From an uncultured bacterium (GTDB lineage Bacteria > Cyanobacteriota > Vampirovibrionia > Gastranaerophilales > Gastranaerophilaceae): a stretch of 64,000 bases of DNA. The notes beneath the pieces are model-generated. The model had not been told where the DNA came from, searched no databases, and saw nothing but the letters and a program-made list of their open reading frames with translations. Within the stretch, counting starts at the first letter, position 1, and each line of letters starts with the position of its first letter. The position numbers and the translations under genes are program-made. The stretch covers positions 28,016 to 92,015 of the forward strand of contig CASDVM010000027.1 in assembly GCA_949284415.1 (NCBI GenBank), read 5' to 3'. Below, in pieces: positions 9,298-64,000 of the stretch.

Positions 9298-9333
9298 AAC
9301 AACGGACTTAACAATATTGTTAAGTCCGTTGTT
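9298..9333 (+). terminator. Hairpin after hup
   Basis: AACAACGGACTTAACA-ATAT-TGTTAAGTCCGTTGTT, a perfect 16-bp stem. It overlaps the -35 of the next promoter. Confidence 0.6.
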
Positions 9334-9345
9334 GTATGATATAAT
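9317..9345 (+). promoter_or_regulatory. Sigma70-like promoter of pilin locus A
   Basis: TTGTTA, 17-nt spacer, then TGATATAAT (extended -10), about 35 nt upstream of the leader ATG. Confidence 0.55.
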
Positions 9346-9379
9346 AATATTAAAATTGAATTTAAGAAAGGAGCAAAGT

Positions 9380-9472
9380 ATGGGAAGTTTATTAAGAAAT
9401 GTAAATCGGGGGGGGGGGGCATTCTCGGCTGACAGGTGGCAAGAAGTCAGGAAGTCAGGTTGTTTACATTAA
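9380..9472 (+). other. Leader ORF of pilin locus A, containing a G12 tract at 9408-9419
   Basis: AGGAG at 9369-9373, ATG at 9380, sequence MGSLLRNVNRGGG, then the tract. As assembled it stops at 9470-9472. With 11 G it reads into the stop-free frame that continues as ORF 9489..10481. Confidence 0.7.
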
Positions 9473-9488
9473 TGTCATTGCGTATTTA

Positions 9489-10481
9489 TTGCGCAATCCG
9501 GAATTTTTCATAAAAAGGTCGCATACCATATGCGCGATGCCGGGTCTTAATATTAAATTCCTCGCCCTTTGGAAGAGAGTGTCCGAAGGACAGGGGATGG
9601 GCTTGTTACAAAGAAGGATGTCCTTGTTTAATGACTCAAAAGAGTCTCGTTATTACACAGAAAGTTCATGCAAAACTGATGTTGCGGGTGCAGCGGCTAC
9701 GATTCCGAAACGAACTTATTCACTTATTAACCTATTCTCTTATTCTCTTCATAAAAAAGCAGCGTTTACGCTTGCAGAGGTCTTGATAACATTAGGAATT
9801 ATCGGAATCGTAGCCGCTATGACTATGCCGTCTCTTATTTCGAATTACAGACATAAAGTTTTAGAAACCCAATTTAAAAAGGCATATTCTGTTATCAGCC
9901 GGCTTGGTTCAATGATTATTTCAGAGTATGGTGATTGTTCGTATAGTCAAACTGAAGATATAAAGGAGTTTATTTTATCTAATCTTATTAAGGCGGATCA
10001 GACGAGTTCTTCGGATAAATATACTAACTTTTTTACGTATACCAAAAACAAGGCATCTGTCGGAATTCATTTTAACTGTTTGGATAATGTTTCTTGGACA
10101 AACAGCAAAAGCGGTTCAACACCGGATGGAATGCAATTCGCTCTCTGTTCTCATAACAGCGGTATTGGAACAATAGTTGCAGTTGATACTAACGGAGCGG
10201 GAAAAAGACCTAATGCATTCGGTCATGATATATTTTTCTTTCATTTTAATACGGGAAATTGCAGGCTTGAACCTATAACATATACTATCCGCAATTGTAC
10301 TGATGAAGAAAAAGACAGTTGCACACAATCTTCAGATACATATAACGGATGGAAGAGTGTTAATGGAGAATGTTCTCATACAAGTACATCTTCTACAAAC
10401 GGATTTGCCTGTGCACGGTATGCTATTGCAAATGTATGTCCTGACAGTTCGGGCAAAGGATATTTTGATTGTCTGCCTTAG
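9489..10481 (+). CDS. Type IV pilin-like / pseudopilin-like protein A. The true start is probably the leader ATG at 9380, in frame only when the tract is in phase
   Basis: KKAAFTLAEVLITLGIIGIVAAMTMPSLISNYR prepilin-type motif at residue 91 of the tracked ORF; VDTNGAGKRPNAFGHDIFFFHF family motif. The frame is open back to 9405. Confidence 0.8.
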   Translation: MRNPEFFIKRSHTICAMPGLNIKFLALWKRVSEGQGMGLLQRRMSLFNDSKESRYYTESSCKTDVAGAAATIPKRTYSLINLFSYSLHKKAAFTLAEVLITLGIIGIVAAMTMPSLISNYRHKVLETQFKKAYSVISRLGSMIISEYGDCSYSQTEDIKEFILSNLIKADQTSSSDKYTNFFTYTKNKASVGIHFNCLDNVSWTNSKSGSTPDGMQFALCSHNSGIGTIVAVDTNGAGKRPNAFGHDIFFFHFNTGNCRLEPITYTIRNCTDEEKDSCTQSSDTYNGWKSVNGECSHTSTSSTNGFACARYAIANVCPDSSGKGYFDCLP

Positions 10482-11071
10482 AACTTTACTTTTTCAGCCT
10501 GTCTTGCTTCTTTTTCAAGAAGATTTGATTTATATAATATTTTTTTCTTTAATTTATTTTTTATCATAGCTTTAATACCTTTTTCATAGTAAACTTCCAA
10601 GTCGTTAATAAAAGTTAGATCAGGATACTGTCTTAGGGCTTTTGTATATTCTTTAGCTTTTTCAAATAACGGATGGCCTCTTTTGATTACACCGTCTTTT
10701 GCGATTGTTTGTTTATAAAATTTTTCGTTAAATTCCAGATGATTATACATCGGGAATTTTTGCAATATAAAACCTTTGAAATTATTCAGTCCTTTATCGA
10801 TATTTTTTGAAAGACCTGCAAAATATCTGGCAATAATCTGATATTGTTCAATATGTTTTGCTTCATGTTTTATAAATTTTTTAATAAGCGGACGGAATAA
10901 TCTGTTGTTATAAATAAAGTTCAAATTAATTTCGGCAGTATACGGATTTGCGCTGGCTGCTGTATTATCAAGGAATAAACTTGTATGGATTTTCGGTTTT
11001 ACGGGTAATTTATTTTTTTCAGCAACTTGATTTAGAGTATTTAGTATAAACCTGCACTGTTTGATTTTCAT
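10478..11071 (-). CDS. Hypothetical protein with an HExxH motif (HEAKH)
   Basis: 197-aa ORF. Its stop overlaps the stop of pilin A in convergent orientation. No family recognised beyond HExxH. Confidence 0.5.
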   Translation of the reverse strand: MKIKQCRFILNTLNQVAEKNKLPVKPKIHTSLFLDNTAASANPYTAEINLNFIYNNRLFRPLIKKFIKHEAKHIEQYQIIARYFAGLSKNIDKGLNNFKGFILQKFPMYNHLEFNEKFYKQTIAKDGVIKRGHPLFEKAKEYTKALRQYPDLTFINDLEVYYEKGIKAMIKNKLKKKILYKSNLLEKEARQAEKVKF

Positions 11072-11187: not shown

Positions 11188-11196
11188 TGTTATAAT
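11188..11196 (+). promoter_or_regulatory. Extended -10 element of pilin locus B
   Basis: TGTTATAAT, about 40 nt upstream of the leader ATG. Confidence 0.45.
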
Positions 11197-11237
11197 AAAA
11201 ATATAATTAATAATTCAGCAAGAAAGAGGAGAGAAGT

Positions 11238-11285
11238 ATGAAAGATTTATTAAGAATTGTGAACGCGGGGGGGGGCGCTTCTTAG
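11238..11285 (+). other. Leader ORF of pilin locus B, containing a G9 tract at 11267-11275
   Basis: AGGAG at 11227-11231, ATG at 11238, sequence MKDLLRIVNAGGG. It stops at 11283-11285 as assembled. With 8 or 11 G it is in frame with ORF 11371..12219, and there is no stop between them. Confidence 0.7.
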
Positions 11286-11370
11286 CTCCTTATCAATAAT
11301 TTTAACTTGTCAAAATAAAAAAAACTGTTATAATAGTGATAAAATACATCACAATTATAAGGGATTTAAC

Positions 11371-12219
11371 TTGGAAAAATTAAAAGGTTTTACCCGTGCG
11401 GAAGGTGCGCATGTAAGCGACTTTGACAAGATACGCAGAGCAGCATTTACTTTGGCAGAAGTTTTGATAACATTAGGAATTGTAGGAGTTGTAGCAGCCA
11501 TGACAATGCCCGCGCTGATAAATAATTACAGGGCAAAAGTCTTAGAAATAAGTTTTAAAAAAGCTGATTCCATTATTACCCAAGCAATGCAAACAACAAT
11601 GTATGAATACGGGTTTACAAGGTATTATGATTTCGGGATATTTTGTAGCGGTGAGTATTGTAAAGATACAAAACCTGAAGTTTACTTACCTCTGAACAAT
11701 TTATGGAAAAAGCAATTCAGCGGTTTAGAAGAGACAGGTTGGCAGCAAATAAAATCTAAAAATTATCCGTTTGCTAAATTTTGGGGAGAAAAAGCTAATT
11801 TTAATTACGTATTTATGGTTGCCGGTGCCAAGAATAATACTTCTCTAAAGGCATATTTTATGAAAGATGGAATGTTAATCAGTGAAATTATTTTTGAGGC
11901 AAATAATGCTTCGGAATTGGGTGATAAAAGTCATAGGTATACAATATTTCCATTTATATTTGTAGATACAAACGGACCGGCAAAAGGTCCGAATCGTTTA
12001 GGTTATGATATGTTCTATTGGGTTAAAATGACATGTTATTTTACATACTGCGATCCTTTATCTGATAATGTAAGAGGTTGTTATTTATGGGCAAGAAAAG
12101 ATCAAAATCCTTATGATAATTCGGTCAGTTATTGGAAATCATTGTATAAATCAAAGAGTTACTGGGAAAAATTAAAATCTATAGGCGGTGGTAATGGAGA
12201 ACCCAAAGAATTATATTAA
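11371..12219 (+). CDS. Type IV pilin-like / pseudopilin-like protein B
   Basis: RRAAFTLAEVLITLGIVGVVAAMTMPALINNYR and VDTNGPAKGPNRLGYDMFYW. A degenerate first motif MEKLKGFTRAE lies at the tracked TTG start. Confidence 0.8.
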   Translation: MEKLKGFTRAEGAHVSDFDKIRRAAFTLAEVLITLGIVGVVAAMTMPALINNYRAKVLEISFKKADSIITQAMQTTMYEYGFTRYYDFGIFCSGEYCKDTKPEVYLPLNNLWKKQFSGLEETGWQQIKSKNYPFAKFWGEKANFNYVFMVAGAKNNTSLKAYFMKDGMLISEIIFEANNASELGDKSHRYTIFPFIFVDTNGPAKGPNRLGYDMFYWVKMTCYFTYCDPLSDNVRGCYLWARKDQNPYDNSVSYWKSLYKSKSYWEKLKSIGGGNGEPKELY

Positions 12220-18310: not shown

Positions 18311-18868
18311 ATGATTTCAGTAAACGATTTAAAAACAGGCTTAACGCTTCAATTGGACAACGGTTTATGGTCTGTTGTTGAATTTTTACACGTAAAACCC
18401 GGCAAAGGTGCTGCGTTTGTCAGATCAAAACTTAAAAACGTTGAAACAGGTCAGGTTGTTGAAAAAACTTTCCGTGCAGGCGAAAAAGTTGCAAAAGCTA
18501 TGCTTGACAGACGCGAAATGCAATACCTGTATAAAGAAGGCAAAGAGTACGTTATGATGGATAACGAAACTTATGAGCAGCTCCAGTTAACCGAAGAACA
18601 AATCGGAGACGGTATCAAATATTTGAAAGAAAACATGATTGTTCAGGTGTTGATGCACGATTCAAGAATTATAGGCGTTGACCTTCCTGCTCATGTAATT
18701 CTTGAAGTTACTGATACTCCTCCGTCAGAAAAGGGCAATACTGCTCAGGGCGGTACAAAACCTGCTACTCTTGAAACAGGTGCTGTTGTTAATGTTCCGT
18801 TCTTCATTTCAAACGGTGATAAAATCAGAGTAGATACAAGAACTAACGAGTATCTTGACAGAGCGTAA
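18311..18868 (+). CDS. efp: Elongation factor P
   Basis: [13 protein letters not shown]...[23 protein letters not shown] purines precede the ATG at 18311. Confidence 0.93.
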
Positions 18869-19537: not shown

Positions 19538-20896
19538 ATGTTTAGAAAAGTATTAATAGCAAACAGAGGCGAAATTGCTGTAAGAATTATCAGAGCGTGC
19601 AGAGAGATCGGGATTCCGACAGTCGCAATTTATTCTCAGGCTGATGCAAATTCTCTTCATGTCAGATTGGCAACGGAGGCTTATTGTATAGGTCCTGCTT
19701 CCAGTGCTAAAAGTTATTTAAGCATTCCTGCAATAATTTCGGCCGCGATCGTATCTGGCGCTGATGCTATTCACCCCGGTTACGGATTTATGTCTGAAAG
19801 AGCCGATTTCGCTGAAATTTGTGCTAAACACGGTATAAAATTTATCGGTCCGACAGCTGAAGCAATGCGTAAAATGGGTGATAAAGCAACCGCCCGTCAG
19901 ACGATGATTGATAATAACGTTCCTGTAACACCGGGGACCGGTATTTTGAAAACGCCTGAAGAAGTTAAAGAATTTGCAAACAGAGTCGGTTATCCGATTA
20001 TTTTAAAAGCGACAGCAGGCGGCGGCGGAAAAGGTATGAGAATTTGCCGTTCGGATGACGATGTGGAAACTAATATGAATTTATGCCAGTCTGAAGCCCA
20101 AAATTTCTTTGGAAATCCTGACGTTTATGCAGAAAAATATCTTGAAAATCCGCGTCATATAGAGGTTCAAATTCTTGCTGACCAGTACGGGAATGTTGTT
20201 CACTTAGGCGAAAGAGACTGCTCTATTCAAAGACGCCACCAAAAACTTCTTGAAGAAGCTCCGTCCCCTGCAATTGATGAAGCTACGCGTAAAGAAATGG
20301 GTGCAGCTGCTGTCAGAGCTGCAAAGGCAATTAATTATGAAAGCGCAGGAACCTGTGAATTTTTACTCGACCATGACGGCAAATGGTACTTTATGGAAAT
20401 GAATACCAGAATTCAGGTTGAACATTGCGTTACAGAAATGATTTCTAATATTGATTTAGTCAGAGAGCAGATAATGATTGCATCCGGCGAAAAACTTGAT
20501 TTTACTCAGGATGAAATTATGCTGCGCGGTCATGCAATTGAATGCCGTATTAATGCCGAAAATCCCGAAAAGGACTTTATGCCTAATCCGGGAACCATTA
20601 CGGGATATGTAACTCCTGGAGGTTTCGGTGTAAGAGTTGATTCTCACGCTTATCAGGATTATGCAATTCCGCCTTATTACGATTCAATGATAGGAAAACT
20701 TATCTGCTGGGGCAGAACAAGAAATGAAGCCCGCAGAAGAATGTACAGGGCATTGAAAGAGTATGTTATAACCGGTGTGGAAACAACTATTCCTTTCCAT
20801 CAGGAAATCATTGAAGATCCTGTATTTATGAGTGGGAATTTCAATACCGGATTTATAGAAGATTTCTATAAACGTACAGGAAAAGATAAAAAATAA
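19538..20896 (+). CDS. accC: Biotin carboxylase
   Basis: KVLIANRGEIAVRIIRAC, GGGGKGMR and EMNTRIQVEH. Confidence 0.96.
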   Translation: MFRKVLIANRGEIAVRIIRACREIGIPTVAIYSQADANSLHVRLATEAYCIGPASSAKSYLSIPAIISAAIVSGADAIHPGYGFMSERADFAEICAKHGIKFIGPTAEAMRKMGDKATARQTMIDNNVPVTPGTGILKTPEEVKEFANRVGYPIILKATAGGGGKGMRICRSDDDVETNMNLCQSEAQNFFGNPDVYAEKYLENPRHIEVQILADQYGNVVHLGERDCSIQRRHQKLLEEAPSPAIDEATRKEMGAAAVRAAKAINYESAGTCEFLLDHDGKWYFMEMNTRIQVEHCVTEMISNIDLVREQIMIASGEKLDFTQDEIMLRGHAIECRINAENPEKDFMPNPGTITGYVTPGGFGVRVDSHAYQDYAIPPYYDSMIGKLICWGRTRNEARRRMYRALKEYVITGVETTIPFHQEIIEDPVFMSGNFNTGFIEDFYKRTGKDKK

Positions 20897-20900
20897 AATA

Positions 20901-20931
20901 AAAAAGCCTGAGATATACCTCAGGCTTTTTT
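20901..20931. terminator. Bidirectional rho-independent terminator
   Basis: AAAAA-GCCTGAG-ATATAC-CTCAGGC-TTTTTT, lying between the convergent accC and the XRE gene. Confidence 0.8.
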
Positions 20932-21148
20932 AAAAGTCGAAGAAATCCTTAACGGGTATATCCAGTTTTTCTGCTATATCTATTAAAAGTCCTAAACTTA
21001 CGCATCTTTTGGCAGTTTCAATTTTTGCTAGGTGCTCTCTTGATATATCTAATAATTCTGCAAGCTGATTTTGCGAAAGTCCTTTTGCCTTTCTGAATTT
21101 GAAAATATTTCTGCCCAATTGTAAAATTTTTGTAGTCTTATTGTTCAC
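20930..21148 (-). CDS. XRE-family helix-turn-helix regulator, divergent from pilin D
   Basis: 72 aa, KGLSQNQLAELLDISREHLAKIETAKR. Confidence 0.85.
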   Translation of the reverse strand: MNNKTTKILQLGRNIFKFRKAKGLSQNQLAELLDISREHLAKIETAKRCVSLGLLIDIAEKLDIPVKDFFDF

Positions 21149-21202: not shown

Positions 21203-22027
21203 TTGAAGAGTTATATGAAAAACGCTTTTACGTTAACCGGAGGTGCTACACACGTAGTTATGCCGAGCAATTCTTGTCAATTCTTAACAGGGCTTTGTAC
21301 CGGTGGTACCACGCACATAACCTGCTTTGATAATATTAGTAAAGCCGCCTTCACTCTGGCAGAGGTTTTGATAACTTTAGGGATTATCGGTATTGTTGCA
21401 GCATTGACAATGCCTGCTTTAATCGGTAATTATCGCAAAAAACAGACAGTTGTGCAGTTGAAGAAGATATATTCTGCAATGTCGCAGTCTGTGCAAATGT
21501 CTCAGAGTAATTATGGAGATATTGCTGACTGGGATTGGACACTTAGTACGGAAGATTTTTTTTAAAGATATTTGAGTTATAATTTTTCTGTTCTTAAGTA
21601 TTGCGGAAAAAAAGAAGGCTGTTGGAACAAAGATGGCGGGCTAATGCCTAATGGAAATAAATACAGTGATCCTCCGACATTTGCATCTGGCAGTGATAGA
21701 GCCAAAATCAGCTTATCTGATGGTGCGTTTATTGCTATGCGTAAACAGGACAATAACCATGTGCATATCAATGTGGATATTAACGGTTTTAAACGTCCTA
21801 ATACTTATGGAGTGGATATTTTTGTATTTACATTAACGGCTGTCCCTTTTTCAGACAGTTCTCATAAGATTGCTTCACCGGGGCTGTTTATGTTTGGACA
21901 TGGATTGAATGAAAATGAAATAAAATCAAATTATAATGGCTGTTCCAAAAATTCGAACGGTCTTATGTGCGGTGAAAAAATATTAATGGACGGCTGGGAT
22001 ATTAAAGACGATTATCCGTGGAAATAA
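21203..22027 (+). pseudogene. Type IV pilin-like protein D, interrupted by one in-frame TAA at 21566-21568
   Basis: Tracked ORFs 21203..21565 and 21572..22027 are in the same frame. The N-part has KAAFTLAEVLITLGIIGIVAALTMPALIGNYR; the C-part has DINGFKRPNTYGVDIFVFTL and DGWDIKDDYPW. The stop aligns inside a conserved block of the paralogs. Confidence 0.7.
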
Positions 22028-22517: not shown

Positions 22518-22546
22518 TTGAAAATTACATAAATTTTTGCTATAAT
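22518..22546 (+). promoter_or_regulatory. Sigma70-like promoter of pilin locus C
   Basis: TTGAAA, 17-nt spacer, then TGCTATAAT (extended -10). Confidence 0.55.
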
Positions 22547-22581
22547 AATAGTAGTAACAGTAAAAACAGAGGAGATTAATT

Positions 22582-22632
22582 ATGAAAGATTTATTAAGAT
22601 TTGTAAATCGGGGGGGGGGCATTCTCGGCTGA
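22582..22632 (+). other. Leader ORF of pilin locus C, containing a G10 tract at 22610-22619
   Basis: AGGAG at 22570-22574, ATG at 22582, sequence MKDLLRFVNRGGG. It stops at 22630-22632 as assembled. With 11 G it is in frame with ORF 22689..23615. Confidence 0.7.
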
Positions 22633-22688
22633 CAGGTGGCAAGAAGTCAGGAAGTCAGGTTGTTTACATTAATGTCATTGCGTATTTA

Positions 22689-23615
22689 TTGCGCAATCCG
22701 GAATTTTTCATAAAAAGGTCGCACACCATATGCGCGATGCCGGGTCTTAATATTAAATTCCTCGCTCATTGGAAGAGGGGGGCCGAAGGACATGAGAGGG
22801 GCTTTTTACAAAGAAGGATGTCCTTGTTTAACGACTCAAAAGAGTCTCGTTATTACACAGAAAGTTCATGCAAAACTCATATTGCGGGTGCCGCGGCTAC
22901 ACTGCCGAAACGAACTTATTCACCTGTTCACTTATTTTCTTATTCACTTCACAAAAAAGCAGCGTTTACGCTTGCAGAGGTCTTGATAACATTAGGAATT
23001 ATCGGAATCGTAGCCGCTATGACTATGCCGTCATTGATAACTAATTACCGAAAAAAACAAACTGCTGTCAGACTTGAAAGGTTTTATTCTATAATGAGTC
23101 AGGCTGTTCTCAGATGGCAGCAGGACGAAGGAATTGTGCCTGAGGATATCAGGTTTCCTGCGGAGACCGTAAAAAATGGTGTAAAAACGCAGGAGTGGTT
23201 TTCTTCTACAATCGGTAAATATATAACAACTACATATCAAACAACTAACGGGCAAAATTTTTCTGCTGCATTTAATGACGGTTCCGGATTTGATTCTTAT
23301 ATAGGCAATGAAAACCAGTTTTTTATATTTTACTGCGTAGATTATAAGTATTGTATAAATGCTAACGGAGACGGAAATTATAACGGTAAAACAGGGTTCC
23401 TGTTTGAGATAAACCGAGGCAAATTTCTAACATCTTCTCCATATTTTGATAACAAGACAAGAGAAGAAATCTTAGAATCGTGCAAATACGGAAACAGAGA
23501 TGACCCGTCTGTGAGTTCAAAAGGACGCCGTCATGCCTGTGCAAGACTTATTCAGATGGACGGCTGGGAAATAAGAAAAGACTACCCATGGGAACAAACA
23601 ATGTTAGAAAATTAA
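22689..23615 (+). CDS. Type IV pilin-like / pseudopilin-like protein C
   Basis: KKAAFTLAEVLITLGIIGIVAAMTMPSLITNYRKKQ and a C-terminal DGWEIRKDYPW. The leader is near-identical to locus A. Confidence 0.8.
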   Translation: MRNPEFFIKRSHTICAMPGLNIKFLAHWKRGAEGHERGFLQRRMSLFNDSKESRYYTESSCKTHIAGAAATLPKRTYSPVHLFSYSLHKKAAFTLAEVLITLGIIGIVAAMTMPSLITNYRKKQTAVRLERFYSIMSQAVLRWQQDEGIVPEDIRFPAETVKNGVKTQEWFSSTIGKYITTTYQTTNGQNFSAAFNDGSGFDSYIGNENQFFIFYCVDYKYCINANGDGNYNGKTGFLFEINRGKFLTSSPYFDNKTREEILESCKYGNRDDPSVSSKGRRHACARLIQMDGWEIRKDYPWEQTMLEN

Positions 23616-26926: not shown

Positions 26927-27535
26927 TTATAACCTGTGCGGATAATCTTTTCTGAATTCCCAATTGTCTATTTCCAGCAATGCAGAGCAATAAGCCCCAT
27001 TATTTTTGCATGCTTCAAGTATTTTATCTCTTGAATGCGGCTGATTTCCATAATAGTATGTGCACCATCCTTTATTTGGACACCATTCTGTTATTGATTT
27101 GTCGCAGGCTAAAAATCTGAATCTGTCCCTGCCCTCGACATTAGGTTTTTTATCTCCGTTAACATCAAAGATACAGTCCATACATCTTCCTCTGTATATA
27201 GTTAATTTTGTTCCATCAGGAAAATACATTATAGCCTGACTATTATTTTCATCAATAGACAAAGCCTTAAGATATGGAGCCCAGTATTTCGTGGCAAATT
27301 CTTTCGGAGGCAGTGATAAATCCCATTCATTAACATCACCGTTTTCTTCAACAGAAAGAATCAGTGCCTGCCCCATCATAGAATTGAATTTTTTCAACCT
27401 TGCACTTGTTTCTTGTCTTTTATAGCTAGTGATAAGACTAGGGAGTGTCAATGCTGCAACTATACCTATAATTCCGAGTGTAATCAAAACTTCAGCCAAA
27501 GTAAACCCGATTTTAGTCTCATTATTCTGTTTCAT
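26927..27535 (-). CDS. Type IV pilin-like protein G with a canonical short leader
   Basis: MKQNNETKIG-FTLAEVLITLGIIGIVAALTLPSLITSYKRQ, FDVNGDKKPNVEGRDRFRFL and C-terminal IDNWEFRKDYP. The ATG at 27535 is preferred over the tracked start at 27628. Confidence 0.85.
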   Translation of the reverse strand: MKQNNETKIGFTLAEVLITLGIIGIVAALTLPSLITSYKRQETSARLKKFNSMMGQALILSVEENGDVNEWDLSLPPKEFATKYWAPYLKALSIDENNSQAIMYFPDGTKLTIYRGRCMDCIFDVNGDKKPNVEGRDRFRFLACDKSITEWCPNKGWCTYYYGNQPHSRDKILEACKNNGAYCSALLEIDNWEFRKDYPHRL

Positions 27536-27567
27536 AATATAATTATAACTCTTTATATTATATATGT

Positions 27568-27639: not shown

Positions 27640-27864
27640 ATGGATGATAAAGAACTTTTTAGCAGAATTGGTCTGAATATTAGAGTAGAGCGTACTATAA
27701 AACGTCTCACCCAAGCCCAGCTTGCAGAAATGATTGATGTACATGAAAAATATATAGGTAAAATTGAAACAGGAAAACAAAATATAACTCTTAAAACCCT
27801 GAATAAAATTGCACAAGCTTTAAATATAGATATAACAAGACTGTTAGAAGACAAAAATCATTGA
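27640..27864 (+). CDS. XRE-family helix-turn-helix regulator, divergent from pilin G
   Basis: 74 aa, RLTQAQLAEMIDVHEKYIGKIETGKQN. Confidence 0.85.
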   Translation: MDDKELFSRIGLNIRVERTIKRLTQAQLAEMIDVHEKYIGKIETGKQNITLKTLNKIAQALNIDITRLLEDKNH

Positions 27865-27883
27865 CAATTATTTATTTTTTATG

Positions 27884-36440: not shown

Positions 36441-36522
36441 GAAAAGAACTCCTTTCTGTTTAATATTAGCATAAACTAAAAAGGATTTTTTCAAAACCTC
36501 AGTCGGGTAGTTTTTTTTTTAC

Positions 36523-37195: not shown

Positions 37196-40100
37196 TTATT
37201 CTTCGTCTTCATTACCGAGCTGGAAGTCAGGAGAACCGAACATACCTTCAATTTCTTCCAAAATCGCAGACGGTTTTCTTGCCTGATTTCTTTGAGCTAC
37301 CGCACGTTTTCTTTCTTCACGTTCTTTCTCTTCGTTCGCATTTGAAAGATGGTGGAAGCCTGTGCCTGCAGGTATCAAACGACCGATGATAACGTTTTCT
37401 TTCAAACCTCTCAACATGTCTTTTTTACCTTCAACGGCTGCTTCTGTCAGGATTCTTGTTGTTTCCTGGAATGAAGCTGCTGAAATGAAACTTTCTGTGT
37501 TCAAAGAAGCTTTTGTGATACCTAATAACATATATTCACAAGTTGCAGGTTGACCGCCTTTTTCTTCAACTTCTTTGTTTTCTTTTTCGAATGTCTGCAT
37601 TTCAATTAATTCACCCGGCAGTAATGTTGTATCACCTGCATCGACAACTTTAACTTTTTTAGTCATCTGTCTTACGATGATTTCAACGTGTTTATCGGCA
37701 ATTTCTACACCTTGAGAACGATATACTCTCTGTACTTCATCCACAAGATATTGCTGTGCGGCTTCCGGTCCGCAGAGTCTTATAACATCGTGCGGGTTCA
37801 AAGGTCCGCTTGTCAAAGGCTGACCTTTTTTGATTTTCTGTTTATTCTGAACAACGATGTTTGCATCAATTGCGTATTTGATCTCGGTTCTGCCATTGTC
37901 AGTAACAAGATAGAGTCTCGGCAAATCTTCATCCGTTTCAATTTCCGCAATACCGTCTTCTTCTGCCAGAATAGCACAATCTTTAGGTTTGCGGCCTTCA
38001 AGAAGTTCTTCAACCCTCGGAAGACCCTGAACGATATCACCTGTTTTTTGTCTTTCAAATACAAGTGTTGCAATGTTATCACCGCGGAGAACAAGTGCGC
38101 CTGCTTCAACCTGTAACATAGTACCCGGGCTGATTAAGTATGGACGACCGTTTCTGATTGTTATTTCACCTTTATTAACAGATGTTACCATACCTGAAAC
38201 GGTTGATTTTTCTCCGCTGTCCGCAATGATTGAATCAAGTTTTACAAAGTCGCCTTTTTTAACGTTTGCTTTGCCTTTTACAGACAATGTTGTTTCATAA
38301 GTTTCGCTTGTTAAAAGAAGTCTTCTTGCATCTTCTTTTTCGGATTTTATTGAAGCAACGCCGTCATTGATTGCCAGTACCTGAGTTTTAGCAACAGGTG
38401 TTTTCGGGTCAATAGTCTGGCCGTCTTTTACAAGAAGTTCTGTTTGAAGTGATGACATTGTTTTTGCATTGCCTTCAAATTCACGGCGGACGATTAAGTT
38501 TTCAAGAACAACTATTCTTAAATTATCTTTATCATCAAGTTCTACCATACCTTTAAGGTGTGATAAGTAGCCCTGCATCTGCAGAACAAGACTTGTTCTT
38601 GTAATTGTAGAACCATCGAGATTTCTAACTCTTGCACCGTCTTTGTATTGCAATTGTGTTACAGGTACAATGTCAATCAAGCTGTCAGATGTGTTGAATT
38701 TGATAGATACATTTTTTTGTTCAACATTTAATACCTGAACAGGTCTGATAAGTATCTGTATAGGCTGATTTGATATGTTATCTTCATCAAGCGAAAGACT
38801 TGAGTCAAGTTCTTCATCAAGATCATCGATATCCAGATCATCCATTGAAGAATCCATAATCGTAACGATAGAAGTTTCTTTTACTTTAATACCGTCTGCA
38901 ATTACGGTGCCTTTTTTTACAACTTCGCCTTCGTCAACCTTTAATTCCGAAACACTTGAAAGTGTATGAATTTCACCAGGGCGGATTGTTATTTCATGGA
39001 TAACATCGTTGTATTCTTTGAATTCAACAATACCGTCAATGTGGCAGTAAACATCTTTTACAACTTCGGTGCCTGCTGTAACGTGAGTTCCGTTTTCAAC
39101 CATTTTTAAAGAAGAATCTTTATTAATCTGGTGAATTTCTTCCGGAATAAATACAACAGAACCCGGTTTTGTAATAATCTGGTTTTCGTCTACTTCAACA
39201 TCAACATATCTGATTTCGCCTGATGAAGTTACTGCACATTCATCATCAATAAGTTCTGCGATAATCATACCGTTTTCAACCGTTGTATCAACAGGTGCTT
39301 TTACGATATATTTTTCACCGGTTTTGTTAACTGTCCACAACTGTTCTTTTTTAGTTTGTTCAAATGTCGCATTTTCAGGCATCAATGAAGCAATTACTAT
39401 TGTCAATTCTTTACCTTGAACAATTTTTTTGATATTTTTGCCTTCAAATTTAACATCTTCAATAACTAAATCTTCACCGAAACGGACTTCACCGCCGTGT
39501 TCAGAGATTGTTAAAGTTTCTGCGAGTTTTTCGCCTTCTTTAATTTTCTGACCGTCTTTTACAAGAACTTTAGATCCGCCGGGGAGGTTATAAACATCAC
39601 CGCCAAGAACCCAGATAATACCTTGTTTGTTGGTAGTTCTTGAGATGTTGCCCTGTCTGTCTTTCTTTTCATCAGCTACAAAATCTTCATATAACACTTC
39701 ACCGGAAAGATCTGATGTAATATCTTTTGTGGCTTTTTCTGTCAGACGTGAGCCTGAGCCTTGAGCTGACGGTTCAAACTGGGCAAGTTTAAAGCCTTTT
39801 TTAACCTGCATTCCGTTTGTAAAGAAGATTGTAGAGCCTGCCGGAATATGGTATTTTTCAGTTCTTTTGGCGCCTTTAATTTCAATGTCGGTTTCGTAAT
39901 TAGAGATATTAACAACATCGCCATGACGTGTTCTTAATTCTCTTGTTTTTACATTAGAAATTACTTCACCGTCTTGTTTTGCAATTACTTCTTTGATTGC
40001 ATCTTTAACGCCTACCGCACCGCCAGTGTGGAATGTTCTCATTGTAAGCTGTGTACCGGGTTCACCGATTGACTGCGCTGCAATAATACCGATTGCTTCC

Positions 40101-41056
40101 CCGATATCAACGAGTTTCTGGGTCGTCATTGCCCAGCCGTAGCATTTCTGGCAGATTCCGTATTCAAGACCGCAGGTTAAACCTGAACGAACTTTCAATT
40201 CCTGAAGATTCAGATGTTTAACTTTTTGAATATCATCTCTGTTCATTGTTGTTCCTGCTTTTACAAGAACTGTACCATCCGTATCAACGATATCTTCTGC
40301 AATTGTTCTGCCAAGTAACCTGTCAATCAGAGGAACAATAACATTATCACCGTCAGTAATAGGTTTCATGTTAATTGATTTTGTAGTATGGCAGTCATCG
40401 GCACGGATAATGACATCCTGAGCAACGTCTACCAGTCGTCTTGTCAAATAACCTGAGTCAGCTGTTTTCAACGCCGTATCTACAAGCCCTTTTCTTGCGC
40501 CGTATGATGAAATGATGTATTCCGTAACGGATAAGCCTTCTTTAAAGTTTGATTTAATCGGCAAGTCGATGATTTGTCCCTGCGCATCTGCCATCAAACC
40601 TCTCATTCCCACAAGCTGAGATACCTGTGATAAGTTACCTCTGGCACCTGAGAATGCCATCATATATACAGGGTTTAATTTGTCAAAGTTTTCAACTACC
40701 TGAGATGTTAATTTAGCTGTTGTTTCAGACCAGGTGTCGATAACTTTTGTATATCTTTCTACTTCGGTGATTTCACCTTTAAGATATCTGTTAGTTGATT
40801 TTTCGATTTCTTTTTCGGCTTCTTGAAGCAATTCTTTCTTTGCTTCCGGAACCTGCAAGTCTGCAATAGAAATTGTTGTTCCGGATTTCGTAGCATACTT
40901 ATAGCCGAGGTTTTTCAGGCTGTTAGCCAATTCTGCGGTTTTAGCCCCGCCAAACTCCAGATACATTTGTGAAAGCAAATTGTTTAATCCTTTTTTATCC
41001 ATTTGCTTGTTAATGAAATCTACAGTTTTTTTACCATGTGTGTATGTTGTTTCCAT
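37196..41056 (-). CDS. rpoC2: RNA polymerase beta-prime subunit, C-terminal part (cyanobacterial-type split)
   Basis: Starts after the NADFDGD-containing part and carries the trigger-loop and C-terminal beta-prime blocks (GEAIGIIAAQSIGEPGTQLTMRTFHTGG) with a large lineage-type insertion. Confidence 0.95.
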   Translation of the reverse strand: METTYTHGKKTVDFINKQMDKKGLNNLLSQMYLEFGGAKTAELANSLKNLGYKYATKSGTTISIADLQVPEAKKELLQEAEKEIEKSTNRYLKGEITEVERYTKVIDTWSETTAKLTSQVVENFDKLNPVYMMAFSGARGNLSQVSQLVGMRGLMADAQGQIIDLPIKSNFKEGLSVTEYIISSYGARKGLVDTALKTADSGYLTRRLVDVAQDVIIRADDCHTTKSINMKPITDGDNVIVPLIDRLLGRTIAEDIVDTDGTVLVKAGTTMNRDDIQKVKHLNLQELKVRSGLTCGLEYGICQKCYGWAMTTQKLVDIGEAIGIIAAQSIGEPGTQLTMRTFHTGGAVGVKDAIKEVIAKQDGEVISNVKTRELRTRHGDVVNISNYETDIEIKGAKRTEKYHIPAGSTIFFTNGMQVKKGFKLAQFEPSAQGSGSRLTEKATKDITSDLSGEVLYEDFVADEKKDRQGNISRTTNKQGIIWVLGGDVYNLPGGSKVLVKDGQKIKEGEKLAETLTISEHGGEVRFGEDLVIEDVKFEGKNIKKIVQGKELTIVIASLMPENATFEQTKKEQLWTVNKTGEKYIVKAPVDTTVENGMIIAELIDDECAVTSSGEIRYVDVEVDENQIITKPGSVVFIPEEIHQINKDSSLKMVENGTHVTAGTEVVKDVYCHIDGIVEFKEYNDVIHEITIRPGEIHTLSSVSELKVDEGEVVKKGTVIADGIKVKETSIVTIMDSSMDDLDIDDLDEELDSSLSLDEDNISNQPIQILIRPVQVLNVEQKNVSIKFNTSDSLIDIVPVTQLQYKDGARVRNLDGSTITRTSLVLQMQGYLSHLKGMVELDDKDNLRIVVLENLIVRREFEGNAKTMSSLQTELLVKDGQTIDPKTPVAKTQVLAINDGVASIKSEKEDARRLLLTSETYETTLSVKGKANVKKGDFVKLDSIIADSGEKSTVSGMVTSVNKGEITIRNGRPYLISPGTMLQVEAGALVLRGDNIATLVFERQKTGDIVQGLPRVEELLEGRKPKDCAILAEEDGIAEIETDEDLPRLYLVTDNGRTEIKYAIDANIVVQNKQKIKKGQPLTSGPLNPHDVIRLCGPEAAQQYLVDEVQRVYRSQGVEIADKHVEIIVRQMTKKVKVVDAGDTTLLPGELIEMQTFEKENKEVEEKGGQPATCEYMLLGITKASLNTESFISAASFQETTRILTEAAVEGKKDMLRGLKENVIIGRLIPAGTGFHHLSNANEEKEREERKRAVAQRNQARKPSAILEEIEGMFGSPDFQLGNEDEE

Positions 41057-41161
41057 TTATATCTATCCTTTTTTTAACTTGTCAATGCACTCGGGTGGTC
41101 TTCATAACTTGTTTCAAGATTTTGAGACTTTTCCCTCGCATCTGTTTGTTTTATCGATTTC

Positions 41162-42871
41162 CTACGCAAGAGCATTTCTTACAGCTTCGTTGAAGATAAT
41201 TCTTCCTGCTGTTGTCTCAATTCTTTCACCGTGTTCGTCTCTTACGACAATTTTGTCGTGAAGATCGATTACGCCGACTTCAAGAGCTGAAATTGCATCC
41301 TGGAAGTTGTAGAAATATCCTTTAGGTTCCATTTCAGGATTTTTAAGTATTGTCAGGTAATACATACCCAATACCATGTCCTGTGTCGGAGTGATAATAG
41401 GTTTACCTGTTGCAGGAGCTAAGATGTTGTTAGTTGCTAACATTAACATTCTTGCTTCAGTCTGAGCCTCAATTGATAAAGGTACGTGAACAGCCATCTG
41501 GTCGCCGTCAAAGTCTGCGTTGAATGCCGTACATACAAGCGGATGAAGCTGGATTGCACGTCCTTCTACCAGTTTAGGCTCAAATGCCTGAATACCCAGT
41601 CTGTGAAGAGTCGGGGCACGGTTTAGCAATACGGGGTGTCCATCGATTACTTCTTCTAATATATCCCAGACAACAGCTTCCGAGCGTTCAATTTTCTTTT
41701 TAGCTGATTTTATGTTTTGTACATATCCTCTTTCAATCAATTTATTAACAACAAACGGTTTAAATAATTCGATTGCCATTTCTTTCGGTAAACCGCACTG
41801 GTTCAATTTTAATTGAGGACCTACAACGATTACTGAACGACCTGAGTAGTCAACACGTTTTCCTAATAAGTTTTGACGGAAACGTCCCTGTTTACCTTCG
41901 ATAATGTTAGATAAGGATTTCAATGCTCTGTTGTTTGGTCCGACAACTGTTCTTCCGCGTCTGCCGTTATCAATCAGGGCATCAACCGCTTCCTGCAACA
42001 TACGTTTTTCGTTACGTACAATGATTTCGGGGGCACCCATTTCCAAAAGTCTTTGTAAACGGTTATTTCTGTTGATTACGCGTCTGTATAAGTCGTTTAA
42101 ATCTGATGTTGCAAAACGTCCGCCGTCCAATTGAACCATCGGTCTTAAATCCGGAGGAGTTACAGGCAATACGTCCATAATCATCCATGTCGGATCCGTT
42201 TCTGATGAAATCAATGAATCAAGCAATCTTAAACGTTTGATAAGCTTGCTTTTCTTTTGTACGGAATTAACCGAACCTGCAAGTTCCGATCTTATTTCTT
42301 CTGCAAGTTCTTTTGTATTAACTTCCGAAAGAAGTTCTTTTATGGCTTCGGCACCGATTCCGACTTTTAATTCAGAATCTTCATGTTCTGCCATATAATC
42401 TTCATATTCTTCTTCGGACAACAATTGTAATTTTTTGAATTCGCTTTCGCCCGGATCAAGAACCACGTAGTTGTTGAAATAGATTACCTGTTCAAGATCT
42501 TTTAAAGTCATATCAAGAAGCAAGCCAAGATAAGAAGGAATACCTTTCAAAAACCAGATATGAGAAACGGGAGCTGCAAGTTTAATATGTCCCATTCTCT
42601 GTCGTCTTACCTTACTATCCGTAACTTCAACGCCGCAGCGTTCGCAGATAATACCTTTGTGTCTTACTCTTTTATATTTACCGCAATAGCATTCCCAGTC
42701 TTTAGAAGGTCCAAAAATTCTTTCGCAGAACAGACCGTCTCTTTCCGGTTTTAATGTACGGTAATTAATTGTTTCCGGTTTAGTAACTTCGCCGTAAGAC
42801 CATTTAAGTATTCTTTCCGGTGAAGCGATACTAATTCGTATATAGTCAAAATAATCTATGCTTGTTGACAT
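41162..42871 (-). CDS. rpoC1: RNA polymerase gamma subunit (N-terminal part of beta-prime)
   Basis: Zinc-binding [23 protein letters not shown] and catalytic [12 protein letters not shown]. Ends where rpoC2 begins. Confidence 0.95.
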
Positions 42872-50873: not shown

Positions 50874-51671
50874 TTAAAAACTAATTCTTCTGGGGTAGTT
50901 TTTCGGGATTTTCCATCCGTTGCGCTGGATTATTGCTGTACAATATGCTCCTCCACTTTCATTGTTTGTTCCGCTATTTGGGTTACACCCTATTTGGGTA
51001 TCATTGTATAATGTATCTTCATCCCCATCCCAATTGTATAGATATGGTTCCATTCCTTTCTTATACAAGTATTTCCAGAAAGGTGCATCACTAATGGGAT
51101 AGAATTCAAAAATAAATCTGCAAGATCCTATGGAGTTTTCTTTTTTTATACATTTTTCAGGATTTTTAGGTATAAAATATATATCACGGTTTTCATGCTG
51201 TGCAAAGTAAAAAGCGCTCCCGTCAGCTAAAAAGTAAAGAATAATTTTATTTCCGTCAGCATCTTTAGCTTCTTTTTTATGAGTAATTTTCATGTACGGC
51301 GCAAGGTATTCTTGAAAAGACTCGTCATTTTTGTCAGCCTGATTAACTTTATTCCCCTCATCATCTTCTATATCGTTGTTGAAATAGCTCCAGCTTTCAA
51401 CCTCACCGTTATCGACAATTGACTGTAAAATAGCCTGATTCATAACAGAGTAGAATTTTTTCAGTCTTGTTTCAGCCACGGAGTGTGTGTAATTTTGTAT
51501 TAAAGCCGGCATTGTCATAGCAGCGACAATCCCTATAATGCCTAAGGTTATTAAAACTTCGGCCAATGTAAACGCGACTCGTTTTTTAAGTGAAGTGTGA
51601 AAAGTAAAGTGTGAAGTACATTTCCCTCTCCCCTTGCGGGAGAGGGGGAACGTAGCCGTTCCATCCAACAC
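50874..51671 (-). CDS. Type IV pilin-like / pseudopilin-like protein F
   Basis: KKRVAFTLAEVLITLGIIGIVAAMTMPALIQNY and C-terminal NGWKIPKNYP. The frame stays open upstream to 51806, through the C tract. Confidence 0.8.
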   Translation of the reverse strand: MLDGTATFPLSRKGRGKCTSHFTFHTSLKKRVAFTLAEVLITLGIIGIVAAMTMPALIQNYTHSVAETRLKKFYSVMNQAILQSIVDNGEVESWSYFNNDIEDDEGNKVNQADKNDESFQEYLAPYMKITHKKEAKDADGNKIILYFLADGSAFYFAQHENRDIYFIPKNPEKCIKKENSIGSCRFIFEFYPISDAPFWKYLYKKGMEPYLYNWDGDEDTLYNDTQIGCNPNSGTNNESGGAYCTAIIQRNGWKIPKNYPRRISF

Positions 51672-51763
51672 CTTAGTCTTGCATAAAACTTTTACGATAC
51701 TTCCTACTGCCCTATTGCCATAGTATTTTACTATCTTCTTAAATACTAAATCACAATCCCTTG

Positions 51764-51814
51764 CTATACAATACTTCTCGGGGGGGGGGCGATTCTCAGC
51801 TCTTCTCTATTCAT
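51764..51814 (-). other. Leader ORF of pilin locus F, containing a C10 tract (coding sense) at 51780-51789
   Basis: AGGAGG at 51823-51828 (minus strand), ATG at 51814, sequence MNREELRIAPPP. It stops at 51764-51766 as assembled. ATG to the pilin GTG is 143 nt, so one extra C (11) restores the frame. Confidence 0.7.
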
Positions 51815-51850
51815 AATTTTTGCCTCCTAAAATTTAAAAACCATATTTTT

Positions 51851-51879
51851 ATTATTTCCGATTTTTCTATATTTGTCAA
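51851..51879 (-). promoter_or_regulatory. Sigma70-like promoter of pilin locus F
   Basis: On the minus strand: TTGACA (51879-51874), 17-nt spacer, AATAAT (51856-51851). Confidence 0.5.
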
Positions 51880-60272: not shown

Positions 60273-60277
60273 GATAA

Positions 60278-61479: not shown

Positions 61480-62787
61480 TTAATCAAGAATACCGAAACG
61501 AGCTTTTTCTCGTTTTGTTTCGGTTGCTTCATAGCTCTGTCCTATTTCATCTTTTCTTAATCCGAACAGTGCAGGGTGTTTAAGCTCGCCTGTACCGAAG
61601 ATTAAGTGCATGAAGTTTTTGGTTACGGTAATTGCACTGAACATAGAAACAATAACACCGATTGCAAGAGTCAGGGCAAAACCTTTAACAACGCTTGTCC
61701 CTAACAGATAAAGAATTGTACATGTGATTATTGTTGTCATGTTTGAGTCAAAAATACTTGTAAATGCTCTGTCAAAACCGGAATTAATTGCCGTAAACAG
61801 ATTTCTGCCTGCTCTTAATTCTTCTTTAGTTCTTTCAAAAATAAGAATATTGGCATCAACAGCCATACCTATTGAAAGAATAAAACCTGCAATACCTGCA
61901 AGAGTTAAAGTTACAGGGATTGTTTTAAACAGTGCAAATAATATTAAACTGTATATTACTAAGGCGATATCAGCAATCAAACCGGGAACGTGATAGAAGA
62001 CTATCATAAACAGCATAACTGCCGAAAGACCTATTATACCTGCTTTTTTTGATTTTTCAATACTGTCTGCACCGAGTGTCGGACCTACAGTATTTTCTTC
62101 AACGATTTTGGCAGGAACAGGTAAAGCACCTGCGTTAAGAAGGTTTACCATTCTTTCGGCTTCTTCATAAGCGAAACCGCTTTCTCCGCCTGAGATCTGG
62201 GCTTTGCCGCCATAAATCGCTTCATTTACACGAGGTGCAGATTGAAGTTCACCGTCAAAGAATATTGCCATCTGCTGACCTACAAGAGCTTTTGTTAAAT
62301 CTGCGAATTTTTTAGCTCCTTCCGAATTAAACTCCAGTGATACAACCCACTGTCCCGTAGTATCGGTGCTTAAGGTTGATTTTGCAAGATCGCGTCCCGT
62401 AATGCCTGTTGAAACCCATACAGGTGAACCGTCTGCAGCTTTCCCTTCTTTTTTGAATTCCAGCTGGGCAGTTTCCCCGATAAAAGCTTTGGCTTCTTTT
62501 AAATCGGTTACGTTTGGAATTTCAATCAGCAGTCTTTTGTCGCCTACCTGTTGAACTACCGTTTCCGCAACACCGAGTTTGTTTACACGCTGTTCAATCG
62601 CAAATTGCAGTCTGTTCATTACGTCAGGTGTAATTTTTGCAATACTGTCTGTTGTTTCGGCTTCAAGAACCAATCTTGACCCGCCGACAAGGTCAAGCCC
62701 GAGTTTTGTCGGTTTAATAAGGATAAGAGCTATTGATACAATAACTATTGCCACAATAAACCAGAACATTAAAATTTTGTTTTTCAT
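61480..62787 (-). CDS. secD: Protein translocase subunit SecD
   Basis: LGLDLVGG, periplasmic domain, C-terminal TM bundle with VDANILIFERTKEE. Confidence 0.93.
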   Translation of the reverse strand: MKNKILMFWFIVAIVIVSIALILIKPTKLGLDLVGGSRLVLEAETTDSIAKITPDVMNRLQFAIEQRVNKLGVAETVVQQVGDKRLLIEIPNVTDLKEAKAFIGETAQLEFKKEGKAADGSPVWVSTGITGRDLAKSTLSTDTTGQWVVSLEFNSEGAKKFADLTKALVGQQMAIFFDGELQSAPRVNEAIYGGKAQISGGESGFAYEEAERMVNLLNAGALPVPAKIVEENTVGPTLGADSIEKSKKAGIIGLSAVMLFMIVFYHVPGLIADIALVIYSLILFALFKTIPVTLTLAGIAGFILSIGMAVDANILIFERTKEELRAGRNLFTAINSGFDRAFTSIFDSNMTTIITCTILYLLGTSVVKGFALTLAIGVIVSMFSAITVTKNFMHLIFGTGELKHPALFGLRKDEIGQSYEATETKREKARFGILD

Positions 62788-62864
62788 TTTTTATCCTCTT
62801 TATTAACTGTTTTTTATTTTTTATTTTACTTGTAATTTTAAATTTTATTTATAGTTCCGTCAGG

Positions 62865-63758
62865 CTAATCGTTATTAACTTCATCTATAACCATAAATAA
62901 ATCTTTTTTTTCTATTTGTGTAAGTTCTACAAGCGGTCGTCTTACAAAATCTTCCATAATTCCTTTATGAGCAAGCGCTGCCTTTACCGGAACAGGATTA
63001 GGCGCCATAAATAATTTTCTGAAAACAGGGTAGAGTTTTTTGTGCATATTAACAGCGGCAAGAAATTCTCCTGTTTTGTAATTTCTAATCATAGATTTTA
63101 TTTCCGAACCGAAAATATGTGATGCAACGGAAATTACACCTCTGGCGCCTAAAGACATCATTGGAAGCGTTAAGCTGTCATCTCCCGAATATACCGAAAA
63201 ATTCTCGGGACAGCATATTTTCATTTCGGTAATCATATCCATATCTGCATAACTTTGTTTAACAGCAACAATATTTTCATATTTTTCTGCAAGTGCGGCA
63301 ACGGTTTCGGGGAGCATATTAACTCCTGTTCTTCCCGGAATATTATAAATAATTACGGGTAAATCAACACTTTCTGCCACTGCTGAAAAATGTTCAATCA
63401 TACCTTTTTGAGATGGTTTGTTATAGTATGGAACAACCGAAAGTATTGCATCAACACCTTCTTTTTGAGCCCATTTTGCAGACAAGACAGCTGTTTCTGT
63501 TGAATTTGAACCTGCATTCATAATAACTTTTGCTTTATTTGCAACGGCTCTTTTTATTGTGCTTAAAAGCTCAAATTCTTCTTCATGTGTTAAAGTCGGA
63601 CCTTCCCCTGTTGTTCCGGCAACAAGAAGGGCATCGCTTCCATGACTAATCAAATATCTGGCAAGTTCTTCGGCTTTGTTATAATCGATTTCTCTTTTTG
63701 AATTAAACGGAGTAACCATAGCTGTTATAACTTCGCCCGCATCGTATCTTAATGCCAT
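62865..63758 (-). CDS. dapA: 4-hydroxy-tetrahydrodipicolinate synthase
   Basis: ITAMVTPF, VAGTTGEGPTLTHEE, YNIPGRTG and the active-site K in VAVKQS. Confidence 0.93.
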   Translation of the reverse strand: MALRYDAGEVITAMVTPFNSKREIDYNKAEELARYLISHGSDALLVAGTTGEGPTLTHEEEFELLSTIKRAVANKAKVIMNAGSNSTETAVLSAKWAQKEGVDAILSVVPYYNKPSQKGMIEHFSAVAESVDLPVIIYNIPGRTGVNMLPETVAALAEKYENIVAVKQSYADMDMITEMKICCPENFSVYSGDDSLTLPMMSLGARGVISVASHIFGSEIKSMIRNYKTGEFLAAVNMHKKLYPVFRKLFMAPNPVPVKAALAHKGIMEDFVRRPLVELTQIEKKDLFMVIDEVNND

Positions 63759-63921
63759 ATAAACCTCTTTCCCTTTTTCAGTCTGTATAACTATCTTTAA
63801 AAATTATAAAACAAACGGTTTGAAAAAACATAAAATATTAAGTTATTTATTGAAATATAAAACAATATATGTTATATTGTTTATATAATAGTTTTTATAA
63901 TAATAAGAGGAGTTTAAAATT

Positions 63922-63972
63922 ATGAAAAGATCAGATTATTCAAGAGTTCGGGGGGGGGGCACTCTCAGTTAG
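63922..63972 (+). other. Leader ORF of a fifth phase-variable locus (E), containing a G10 tract at 63950-63959. The downstream gene lies beyond the window
   Basis: AGGAG at 63908-63912, ATG at 63922, sequence MKRSDYSRVRGGG, stop at 63970-63972. The alternative frame HSQLAEGKKSGSQ matches the in-phase frame of loci A and C. Confidence 0.6.
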
Positions 63973-64000
63973 CTGAGGGCAAGAAGTCAGGAAGTCAAGT

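Follow-up and report, generated by a model that had tools for sequence, protein, structure and literature searches.

The type IV pilin-like loci analyzed here lie in a 64-kb stretch of DNA (hereafter the window) from an uncultured gut bacterium of the Candidatus Gastranaerophilales, and their closest described parallels are surface genes that are switched at short repeats. In Neisseria, the opa family numbers about 11 loci, whose CTCTT repeats lie in the region coding for the signal peptide. Neisseria pilC and the contingency genes of Campylobacter jejuni carry poly-G tracts of ~8–13 nt in their 5′ coding region, which turn the gene ON or OFF by frameshifting and whose modal lengths arise from mutational bias. 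The Opa repertoire and its phase variation (PMC3745409) and the repeats of Neisseria (PMC5320596; PMC5084427) have been treated previously, as has the pil1 locus of Streptococcus gallolyticus, where a repeat-containing leader open reading frame (ORF) sets stochastic pilus expression via a terminator (PMC3894217). In the window, five pilin-like loci (A, B, C, F, and E) each carry a G or C homopolymer inside a short leader ORF, and we favor, with a probability of roughly 0.7, the reading that they form a repertoire of type IV pilin-like proteins (N_methyl plus DUF6613) subject to translational phase variation by slipped-strand mispairing at the DNA level.

Judged from sequence, the mechanism would be textbook slipped-strand translational phase variation, with a logic closest to that of opa, pilC, and the Campylobacter poly-G tracts. 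As in opa, many unlinked surface-protein paralogs with their own promoters would be switched independently and translationally by a repeat in a cleaved N-terminal signal, with a combinatorial outcome. The differences from opa are that the repeat is a homopolymer and not a pentamer, that the product is type IV pilin-like and not a beta-barrel adhesin, that the signal is of class III and extended to 69–128 amino acids (aa) or more, that the consensus is almost always OFF, and that the bearer is an uncultured gut melainabacterium. With pilC and the C. jejuni genes, the loci share a poly-G tract in the 5′ coding region and the frameshift principle; however, those tracts belong to single accessory genes of diverse function that are commonly ON in consensus genomes, whereas here nearly every long G/C tract lies in one pilin-like family and an ON consensus is rare (5/47). 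Like pil1, the loci place a short leader ORF with a repeat ahead of a pilus gene, but the pil1 leader ORF is separate and acts through a transcription terminator, whereas here it fuses in frame with the pilin; because of this fusion, and because there is no conserved terminator, pil1-type attenuation does not fit. The new features are the lineage, the near-exclusive association of long G/C tracts with one pilin-like family, the very long disposable leaders with alanine at position −1, and the strong OFF bias. Full-text literature searches returned no earlier description of poly-G pilin switching in Melainabacteria.

In a scan of all homopolymers in the window (36.2% G+C), only five G/C runs reached 7 nt or more, one per locus: G12 at 9408–9419 (A, + strand), G9 at 11267–11275 (B, +), G10 at 22610–22619 (C, +), G10 on the + strand at 51780–51789, which is C10 in the coding sense of a gene on the − strand (F), and G10 at 63950–63959 (E, +). 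The next-longest G/C run is a single G6 at 22777. Since only ~0.02 runs of at least 9 nt are expected from the base composition of the window, and five are seen, the tracts are not due to chance. At all five loci, the tract starts 25–29 nt past an ATG (A 9380, B 11238, C 22582, and E 63922 on the + strand; F 51814 on the − strand) with a strong Shine–Dalgarno (SD) sequence 6–9 nt before it, and each leader is preceded by a sigma-70-like promoter with an extended −10 element, detected by scan for A and read from the sequence for the others. Locus A (9317–9379, +) shows TTGTTA-17-TGnTATAAT at 9317–9345 in the scan and, on reading, the SD AAGGAG. At B (11188–11284, +), the extended −10 TGTTATAAT at 11188–11196 is followed by GAGGAG, and at C (22518–22634, +), TTGAAA-17-TGcTATAAT likewise by GAGGAG. 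Locus F (51765–51879, −) has TTGACA-17-AATAAT and AGGAGG, and E (63850–64000, +) has TTGAAA-17-TATATT and GAGGAG. The original prediction had named these five tracts as the only long G/C runs, with an SD and ATG before each and promoters at A, B, C, and F; the scan recovered the tracts at the same coordinates, reading of the sequence bore out all five leaders, and the promoters proved to extend to E as well.

In the assembled sequence, every one of the five loci is OFF. The leader ORF of A (9380–9472, +; MGSLLRNVNRGGGAFS...H*) holds G12 and needs −1 to enter the pilin frame, that of B (ATG 11238, +; MKDLLRIVNAGGGAS) holds G9 and needs −1 or +2, and those of C (G10), F (−; MNREELRIAPPPRSIV, with C10 at 51789–51780), and E (G10) need +1. 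Three-frame translation thus reproduced the arithmetic proposed earlier, in which all five loci are ON at a tract length of 11 (or 8 or 14), and related contigs contain actual ON alleles with G11 and G8. The OFF leader ORFs are 11–30 aa long and end 2–17 codons past the tract. The claim that a different frame runs stop-free from the tract into AFTLAEVLITLGIIG also stands for the four complete loci: the pilin frame is open up to FTLAEVLITLGIIG (the FTLAEV motif) for 115 codons in A (9420–9764, +), where it is the only stop-free frame, for 56 in B (11276–11445, +), for 115 in C (22620–22964, +; ~92% identical to the A spacer), and for 69 in F (51573–51779, −). Given a stop density of 7.1% per codon in the other two frames, the joint chance of four open spacers is ~4e-12. 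The gene at E exceeds the window end; the complete locus in L096 has a 77-codon open spacer and then the pilin.

The same holds well beyond the window. Among 45 distinct spacers (3601 codons) from the window and related genomes, for which the nearest pilin motif in any frame was taken and no pre-filter for openness was applied, the pilin frame contains no stop (0/3601), whereas the two alternative frames have 219 and 292. It follows that translation must run from the leader ATG through the tract. In OFF alleles, no SD-linked start is present in the pilin frame upstream of the tract, where a stop mostly lies 4–7 nt ahead of it. From these results together, we conclude that pilin synthesis is selected to proceed from leader ATG to tract to pilin. 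Spacer length varies from 7 to 276 codons, and the 7-codon spacers (L045, L081, and L025) leave no room for an alternative start. Spacer substitutions are only mildly enriched at third positions (e.g., 17/15/24 by codon position between A and its relative L001), suggesting that the constraint is to stay open and not to encode a particular protein. As poly-C versions exist (locus F and related contig L077), it is the nucleotide run that matters and not the encoded glycine or proline.

These spacers also bear on a different explanation, in which the tract would set how far ribosomes reach into a hairpin-rich spacer, so that read-through melts terminators or unmasks internal starts and pilin synthesis begins at an internal or leaderless start. 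Such coupling or attenuation has a precedent in S. gallolyticus pil1 (PMC3894217), and some spacers hold promoter relics (TGTTATAAT, read as ‘CYN’) or an internal SD plus ATG or leaderless ATG that would yield canonical short leaders, such as MKKHFG-FTLAEV. Compared with shuffled controls, the whole spacers of B and F fold moderately better (z −3.0 and −3.8). Those of A and C, however, are not unusually structured (z +0.43 for A), scans of loci A and B gave weak terminator-like matches but no convincing terminator, and spacers of 7–19 codons are too short for an attenuator. Moreover, with no stop in 3601 codons, ribosomes that read through necessarily make the fusion protein. Internal starts were what the original prediction had named as a threat to its reading; no credible internal SD plus ATG occurs in A, C, F, or E, and at B, promoter and start relics remain. 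Overall, we regard coupling or attenuation as quite improbable. Known RNA elements are likewise absent from the spacers, as Rfam at gathering thresholds returned only a tRNA-Leu for the whole window.

Related loci come almost entirely from metagenome-assembled genomes (MAGs) of Candidatus Gastranaerophilales, an order of Candidatus Melainabacteria. One genome per species was scanned for a DNA pattern that combines the conserved leader with 8 or more G. The pattern matched dozens of MAG contigs of this order, on which the same layout of SD, ATG, ~9 codons, tract, open frame, and pilin motif recurs. In 348 kb of related DNA, the window included, 49 of the 57 G/C runs of at least 8 nt lead in an open frame into a pilin motif, with six of the remaining eight cut by contig ends; conversely, 48/55 pilin motifs are preceded by such a tract.

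Tract length varies among close relatives, which was the comparison that the earlier reading had called for. Three other assemblies carry the same strain, with no substitutions relative to the window (the longest over ~18 kb), and all three have G10 at locus B, where the window has G9; in L091 and L092, this tract is the sole difference. Samples that contain the strain include ENA ERZ16268086 and ERZ17292901 and SRA ERR10610480. The ortholog of locus A in a ~90% identical strain has G10 instead of G12. Paralog families span G8 to G12, and one of them includes G8 (ON), G11 (ON), and G10 (OFF) members. ON alleles are present in L024 (G11, 283-aa ORF), at a second locus in L053 (G8), in L011 (G10TGGG), in L112 (G11), and in L109–111, where G11 is identical in three independent samples and yields a full-length 346-aa ORF.

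That the loci are decaying pseudogenes, or in-frame genes mis-assembled by homopolymer error, might be suggested by the OFF state of all five window loci, by one related assembly with odd indels, and by the existence of pilin pseudogenes, such as locus D of the window with its in-frame TAA and relative L001 with an in-frame TGA in the pilin near position 926. Yet independent assemblies (Logan and other ENA samples) concur on G12 at A and G10 at C, F, and E, dead genes would not hold 3601 spacer codons free of stops, and lengths of 8, 9, 10, 11, and 12 are all recovered, so that no systematic miscall explains the pattern. We consider this explanation highly improbable.

The assembly with odd indels (L090/L093; ERZ16268086 scaffold_714) is of the same strain and shows no substitutions but several indels. 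These are tandem duplications of 8 and 11 nt, which fall at almost the same place in the spacers of A and C (~9501 and ~22696), a 10-nt deletion splitting accC (20152–20161), and a 36-nt gap in efp (18421–18456). The spacer duplications were considered as a second switch; given the accC and efp indels, all of these differences are treated as probable assembly errors, although the pairing of the duplications in two paralogous spacers is odd.

Several findings weigh against slipped-strand switching. Consensus allele states are far from random: among 47 distinct alleles, 36 need +1, six need −1, and five are ON, whereas a one-in-three expectation gives P = 3e-4 for five or fewer ON. A metagenome scan that accepted tracts of 6–16 nt, and was thus unbiased as to length, gave G10 in 10/10 true matches, a number too small for a length distribution. 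Tract length differs within just 1/9 clusters of near-identical orthologs, and an assembly error could underlie the G9 seen at B in the window. The B spacer further retains a promoter-like relic, TTGTCA-16-TATAAT at 11307–11334 (11/12 match), together with a degenerate old start (ATG now AAA) and a weak TTG start, suggesting that gating at B may be leaky; it may also leak in some relatives that retain an internal SD plus ATG or a leaderless ATG. Finally, the ON-state products of A, B, C, F, and E would have alanine at −1 and leaders of 69–128 aa, not the glycine at −1 and short basic leader (~5–30 aa) of canonical prepilins; we know of no prepilin leader of such length, which is several-fold beyond those we are aware of.

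The consensus bias toward one G short of ON leaves room for recoding at the RNA level. Under programmed recoding, G10 would be the normal functional state, and low constitutive pilin synthesis would result from RNA polymerase adding a G or from a ribosomal −1 shift on G GGG GGG, DNA length changes being noise. The prevalence of the +1 state and the uniform metagenome matches fit this idea, as do an allele with G9 and an extra upstream A (L089), which keeps the frame requirement and not the tract length, the loci with an ON length of 10 that sit at G9 (L052, L055, and L084), and the stop 2–5 codons past the tract in the modal OFF frame. Against it, full ON alleles (G11 and G8) are the assembly consensus in several populations, six alleles, including A (G12) and B (G9) of the window, need −1, and both G and C tracts are in use. 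Nor do the 70 nt past the tract show a conserved or unusually stable RNA structure in 12 families (z −1.6 to +0.7; no common hairpin), and the common frame state is explicable by an inherited leader cassette and a mutational mode at G10. To our knowledge, any bacterium would show DNA-level slippage at a run of G10. We therefore deem recoding unlikely.

Campylobacter G tracts have a well-known length bias. For the pilin-like loci, the OFF bias could stem from a leader cassette inherited by common descent, from a length mode at G10 set by mutation, or from selection against ON majorities, alone or combined. As assemblies report the majority state, we take it that a given locus is OFF in the majority of cells and that a single insertion would usually turn it ON.

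In the slipped-strand mechanism that we favor, each locus would be an independent transcription unit with a constitutive-looking sigma-70 promoter, a strong SD, and an ATG, followed by a conserved short leader of 8–10 codons (often M-x-x-LLRNVN), a homopolymer of ~10 nt (G, rarely C), a spacer of 7–276 codons, a class III (prepilin) cleavage motif, and the pilin-like body. One tract-length class modulo 3 (8, 11, and 14 for the five window loci) would join the leader ATG to the pilin frame; with the other two, the ribosome would stop 2–17 codons past the tract, and no other start would serve the pilin frame. Slipped-strand mispairing during replication would alter the tract by ±1, presumably reversibly and at a rate high enough for frequent switching within a clone. 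Paralogs would thereby flip ON and OFF stochastically and independently of one another, generating a combinatorial repertoire of pilus or pseudopilus subunits, with the majority of loci OFF in any typical cell. A locus that is ON would have its spacer translated as an unusually long N-terminal leader, presumably removed by prepilin peptidase before the mature subunit could be displayed on the surface.

The mature pilin-like proteins of the complete loci occupy 9765–10481 (A, +), 11446–12219 (B, +), 22965–23615 (C, +), and 50874–51572 (F, −), that of A starting with FTLAEVLITLGIIG. With a Pfam N_methyl (PF07963) cutoff of 21.2 bits, A (24.3 bits), C (24.4 bits), and F (21.5 bits) score above it and B (21.0 bits) just below; F additionally matches DUF6613 (E = 3e-27). 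The gated proteins carry the N_methyl motif with a glutamate at +5 and then a hydrophobic helix. A search with the family profile among solved structures returned type IV pilins and pseudopilins only, aligned over alpha-1, with the F of FTLAEV placed at mature residue 1 of the solved pilins. An AlphaFold2 model of the locus F protein (predicted local distance difference test score 91.5) has a 53-residue N-terminal helix (residues 9–61) and a five-strand alpha/beta head. The proteins resemble canonical type IV pilins, as well as the pseudopilins of type II secretion, in their N-terminal methylation motif, Glu5, long hydrophobic alpha-1, and predicted alpha/beta head, but differ in that the DUF6613 head shows no significant match to solved pilin folds: Foldseek of the locus F model against the PDB gave no match with E < 0.4. 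The family is large: a homology search whose candidates were limited to 8000 returned more than 7000 proteins, and the window alone has five gated loci in 64 kb. Full-text literature searches yielded no paper naming DUF6613. Gastranaerophilus genomes encode pilB, pilC, pilD, and pilT (PMC5877343); among the annotated parts of the window, there is no prepilin peptidase or assembly ATPase.

When 5.8 billion proteins were searched with a virtual ON-state leader for locus A, no ON-state protein of that family emerged; the sole match was a fragment with an internal start, encoded on a G10 (OFF) contig. Gene callers would systematically mis-start or truncate gated pilins, so that database proteins begin at spurious internal codons. 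In addition, MAG assemblies break at tract loci, and functional profiles would under-count the family.

When translated, the spacers are mosaics of recurrent modules, which would represent former promoters, former starts, partial pilin duplications, and palindrome-like hairpins. A block ‘HSQL...IAHLLRN’ is common to A, C, and E, and partial pilin duplications occur within spacers (‘AAFTLAEGATHV...RRAAFTLAEV’). Locus F has a GC-rich hairpin that resembles a repetitive extragenic palindrome (CCCUCUCCC...GGGAGAGGG) in its well-folding spacer. GC-rich perfect hairpins of this palindrome-like kind, such as CCCTCTCCCGCAAGGGGAGAGGG, translated ‘PLSRKGRG’, lie inside translated spacers, at 51610–51650 (−) of the window and in many related spacers. 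As hairpin modules recur in varied combinations across loci and species, frequent frame-preserving recombination or insertion is suggested.

Another module, translated ‘CYNSD(M)xHH’, corresponds at the DNA level to TGTTATAAT with an ATG 6 nt after it. This promoter-plus-ATG block, read as ‘CYNSDMxHH’, is found in many gated spacers (L013, L035, L005, L053, L076, and 11326–11345 of the window), and its layout matches the promoter and start of a canonical pilin gene without tract at 26927–27535 (−). That gene encodes a 10-aa leader with glycine at −1 (MKQNNETKIG-FTLAEV); with TATAAT 6 nt before its ATG and no SD (27536–27560, −), its mRNA is probably leaderless, and the canonical pilin genes of the lineage generally look like leaderless mRNAs. 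We infer from these relics that pilin genes that once stood on their own acquired the switch cassette at their upstream side, and that their old 5′ regions would now be read as leader peptide.

In its broadest form, which we hold to be possible but rather doubtful, this idea would have a portable promoter–SD–ATG–leader–poly-G cassette grafted order-wide in front of many pilin genes that were formerly autonomous and probably had leaderless mRNAs. Former promoters and starts, pilin duplications, and hairpins would then make up a disposable prepilin leader of 7–276 codons, constrained only to stay stop-free, and populations would sit a single slip short of ON (G10 to G11), so that a small random subset of a very large repertoire would be expressed in each cell. 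A variant of this scenario would add basal expression of G10 alleles via slippage at the RNA level. If true, it would amount to lottery-type surface variation in a human gut commensal, with a logic like that of the opa or var families.

Gastranaerophilales, an uncultured group related to cyanobacteria, are widespread in the gut. An order-wide switched pilin repertoire would imply strong fluctuating selection on their surface filaments, possibly from host immunoglobulin A, pilus-receptor phages, or changing attachment substrates. The spacers illustrate how non-coding DNA may be recruited into a translated yet disposable region, and such long, stop-free ‘junk’ leaders would constitute a natural experiment on the N-terminal cargo that a prepilin peptidase substrate tolerates.

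A second tract-less pilin-like gene of the window, locus D (21203–22027, +), has a long leader and a single in-frame TAA (21563–21565), which stands where relatives suggest a lysine codon. An independent Logan assembly (L094) is 100% identical at D, so the TAA represents a real nonsense allele or a pseudogene. An alternative genetic code with recoded TGA, considered on account of the TGA in L001, was rejected, as code 11 leaves the long housekeeping ORFs of the window intact. Both tract-less pilin genes adjoin a divergent gene for an XRE-family helix-turn-helix protein (20920–21138, −, and 27641–27865, +), which none of the five tract-gated loci does; this distribution suggests two modes of control, by a transcription factor or by a repeat switch.

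Some matches to the leader-plus-tract pattern lie outside the order. A typical Gastranaerophilales leader (SD, ATG, MTKFIKKCKF, G10, CACTCTAAGCC) occurs on contig L017, probably mis-binned, of a MAG labeled Muribaculaceae, and L023 is labeled Gammaproteobacteria. The pattern also matched ~30 Bacteroidales genomes (L004, L007, L012, L015, L016, L034, L042, L063, L064, L071, L072, and others), where a G8–G13 run is followed by TAAA, outside the pattern, and often by a TAnnTTTG box ~15–25 nt further on. TAnnTTTG is the Bacteroidetes −7 promoter element, and the Bacteroidales poly-G may be a promoter-embedded switch unrelated to the pilin system.

Elsewhere in the window, rpoC (37196–42871, −) is split, in the manner of cyanobacteria, into genes for a 569-aa gamma and a 1286-aa beta-prime subunit, and the larger subunit carries a long insertion, with Rpb1 domain 5 spanning residues 174–1187. 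T10 at 36511–36520, the window's sole A/T homopolymer that reaches 10 nt, sits directly upstream of a thioredoxin/DsbD gene pair (36494–35347, −).

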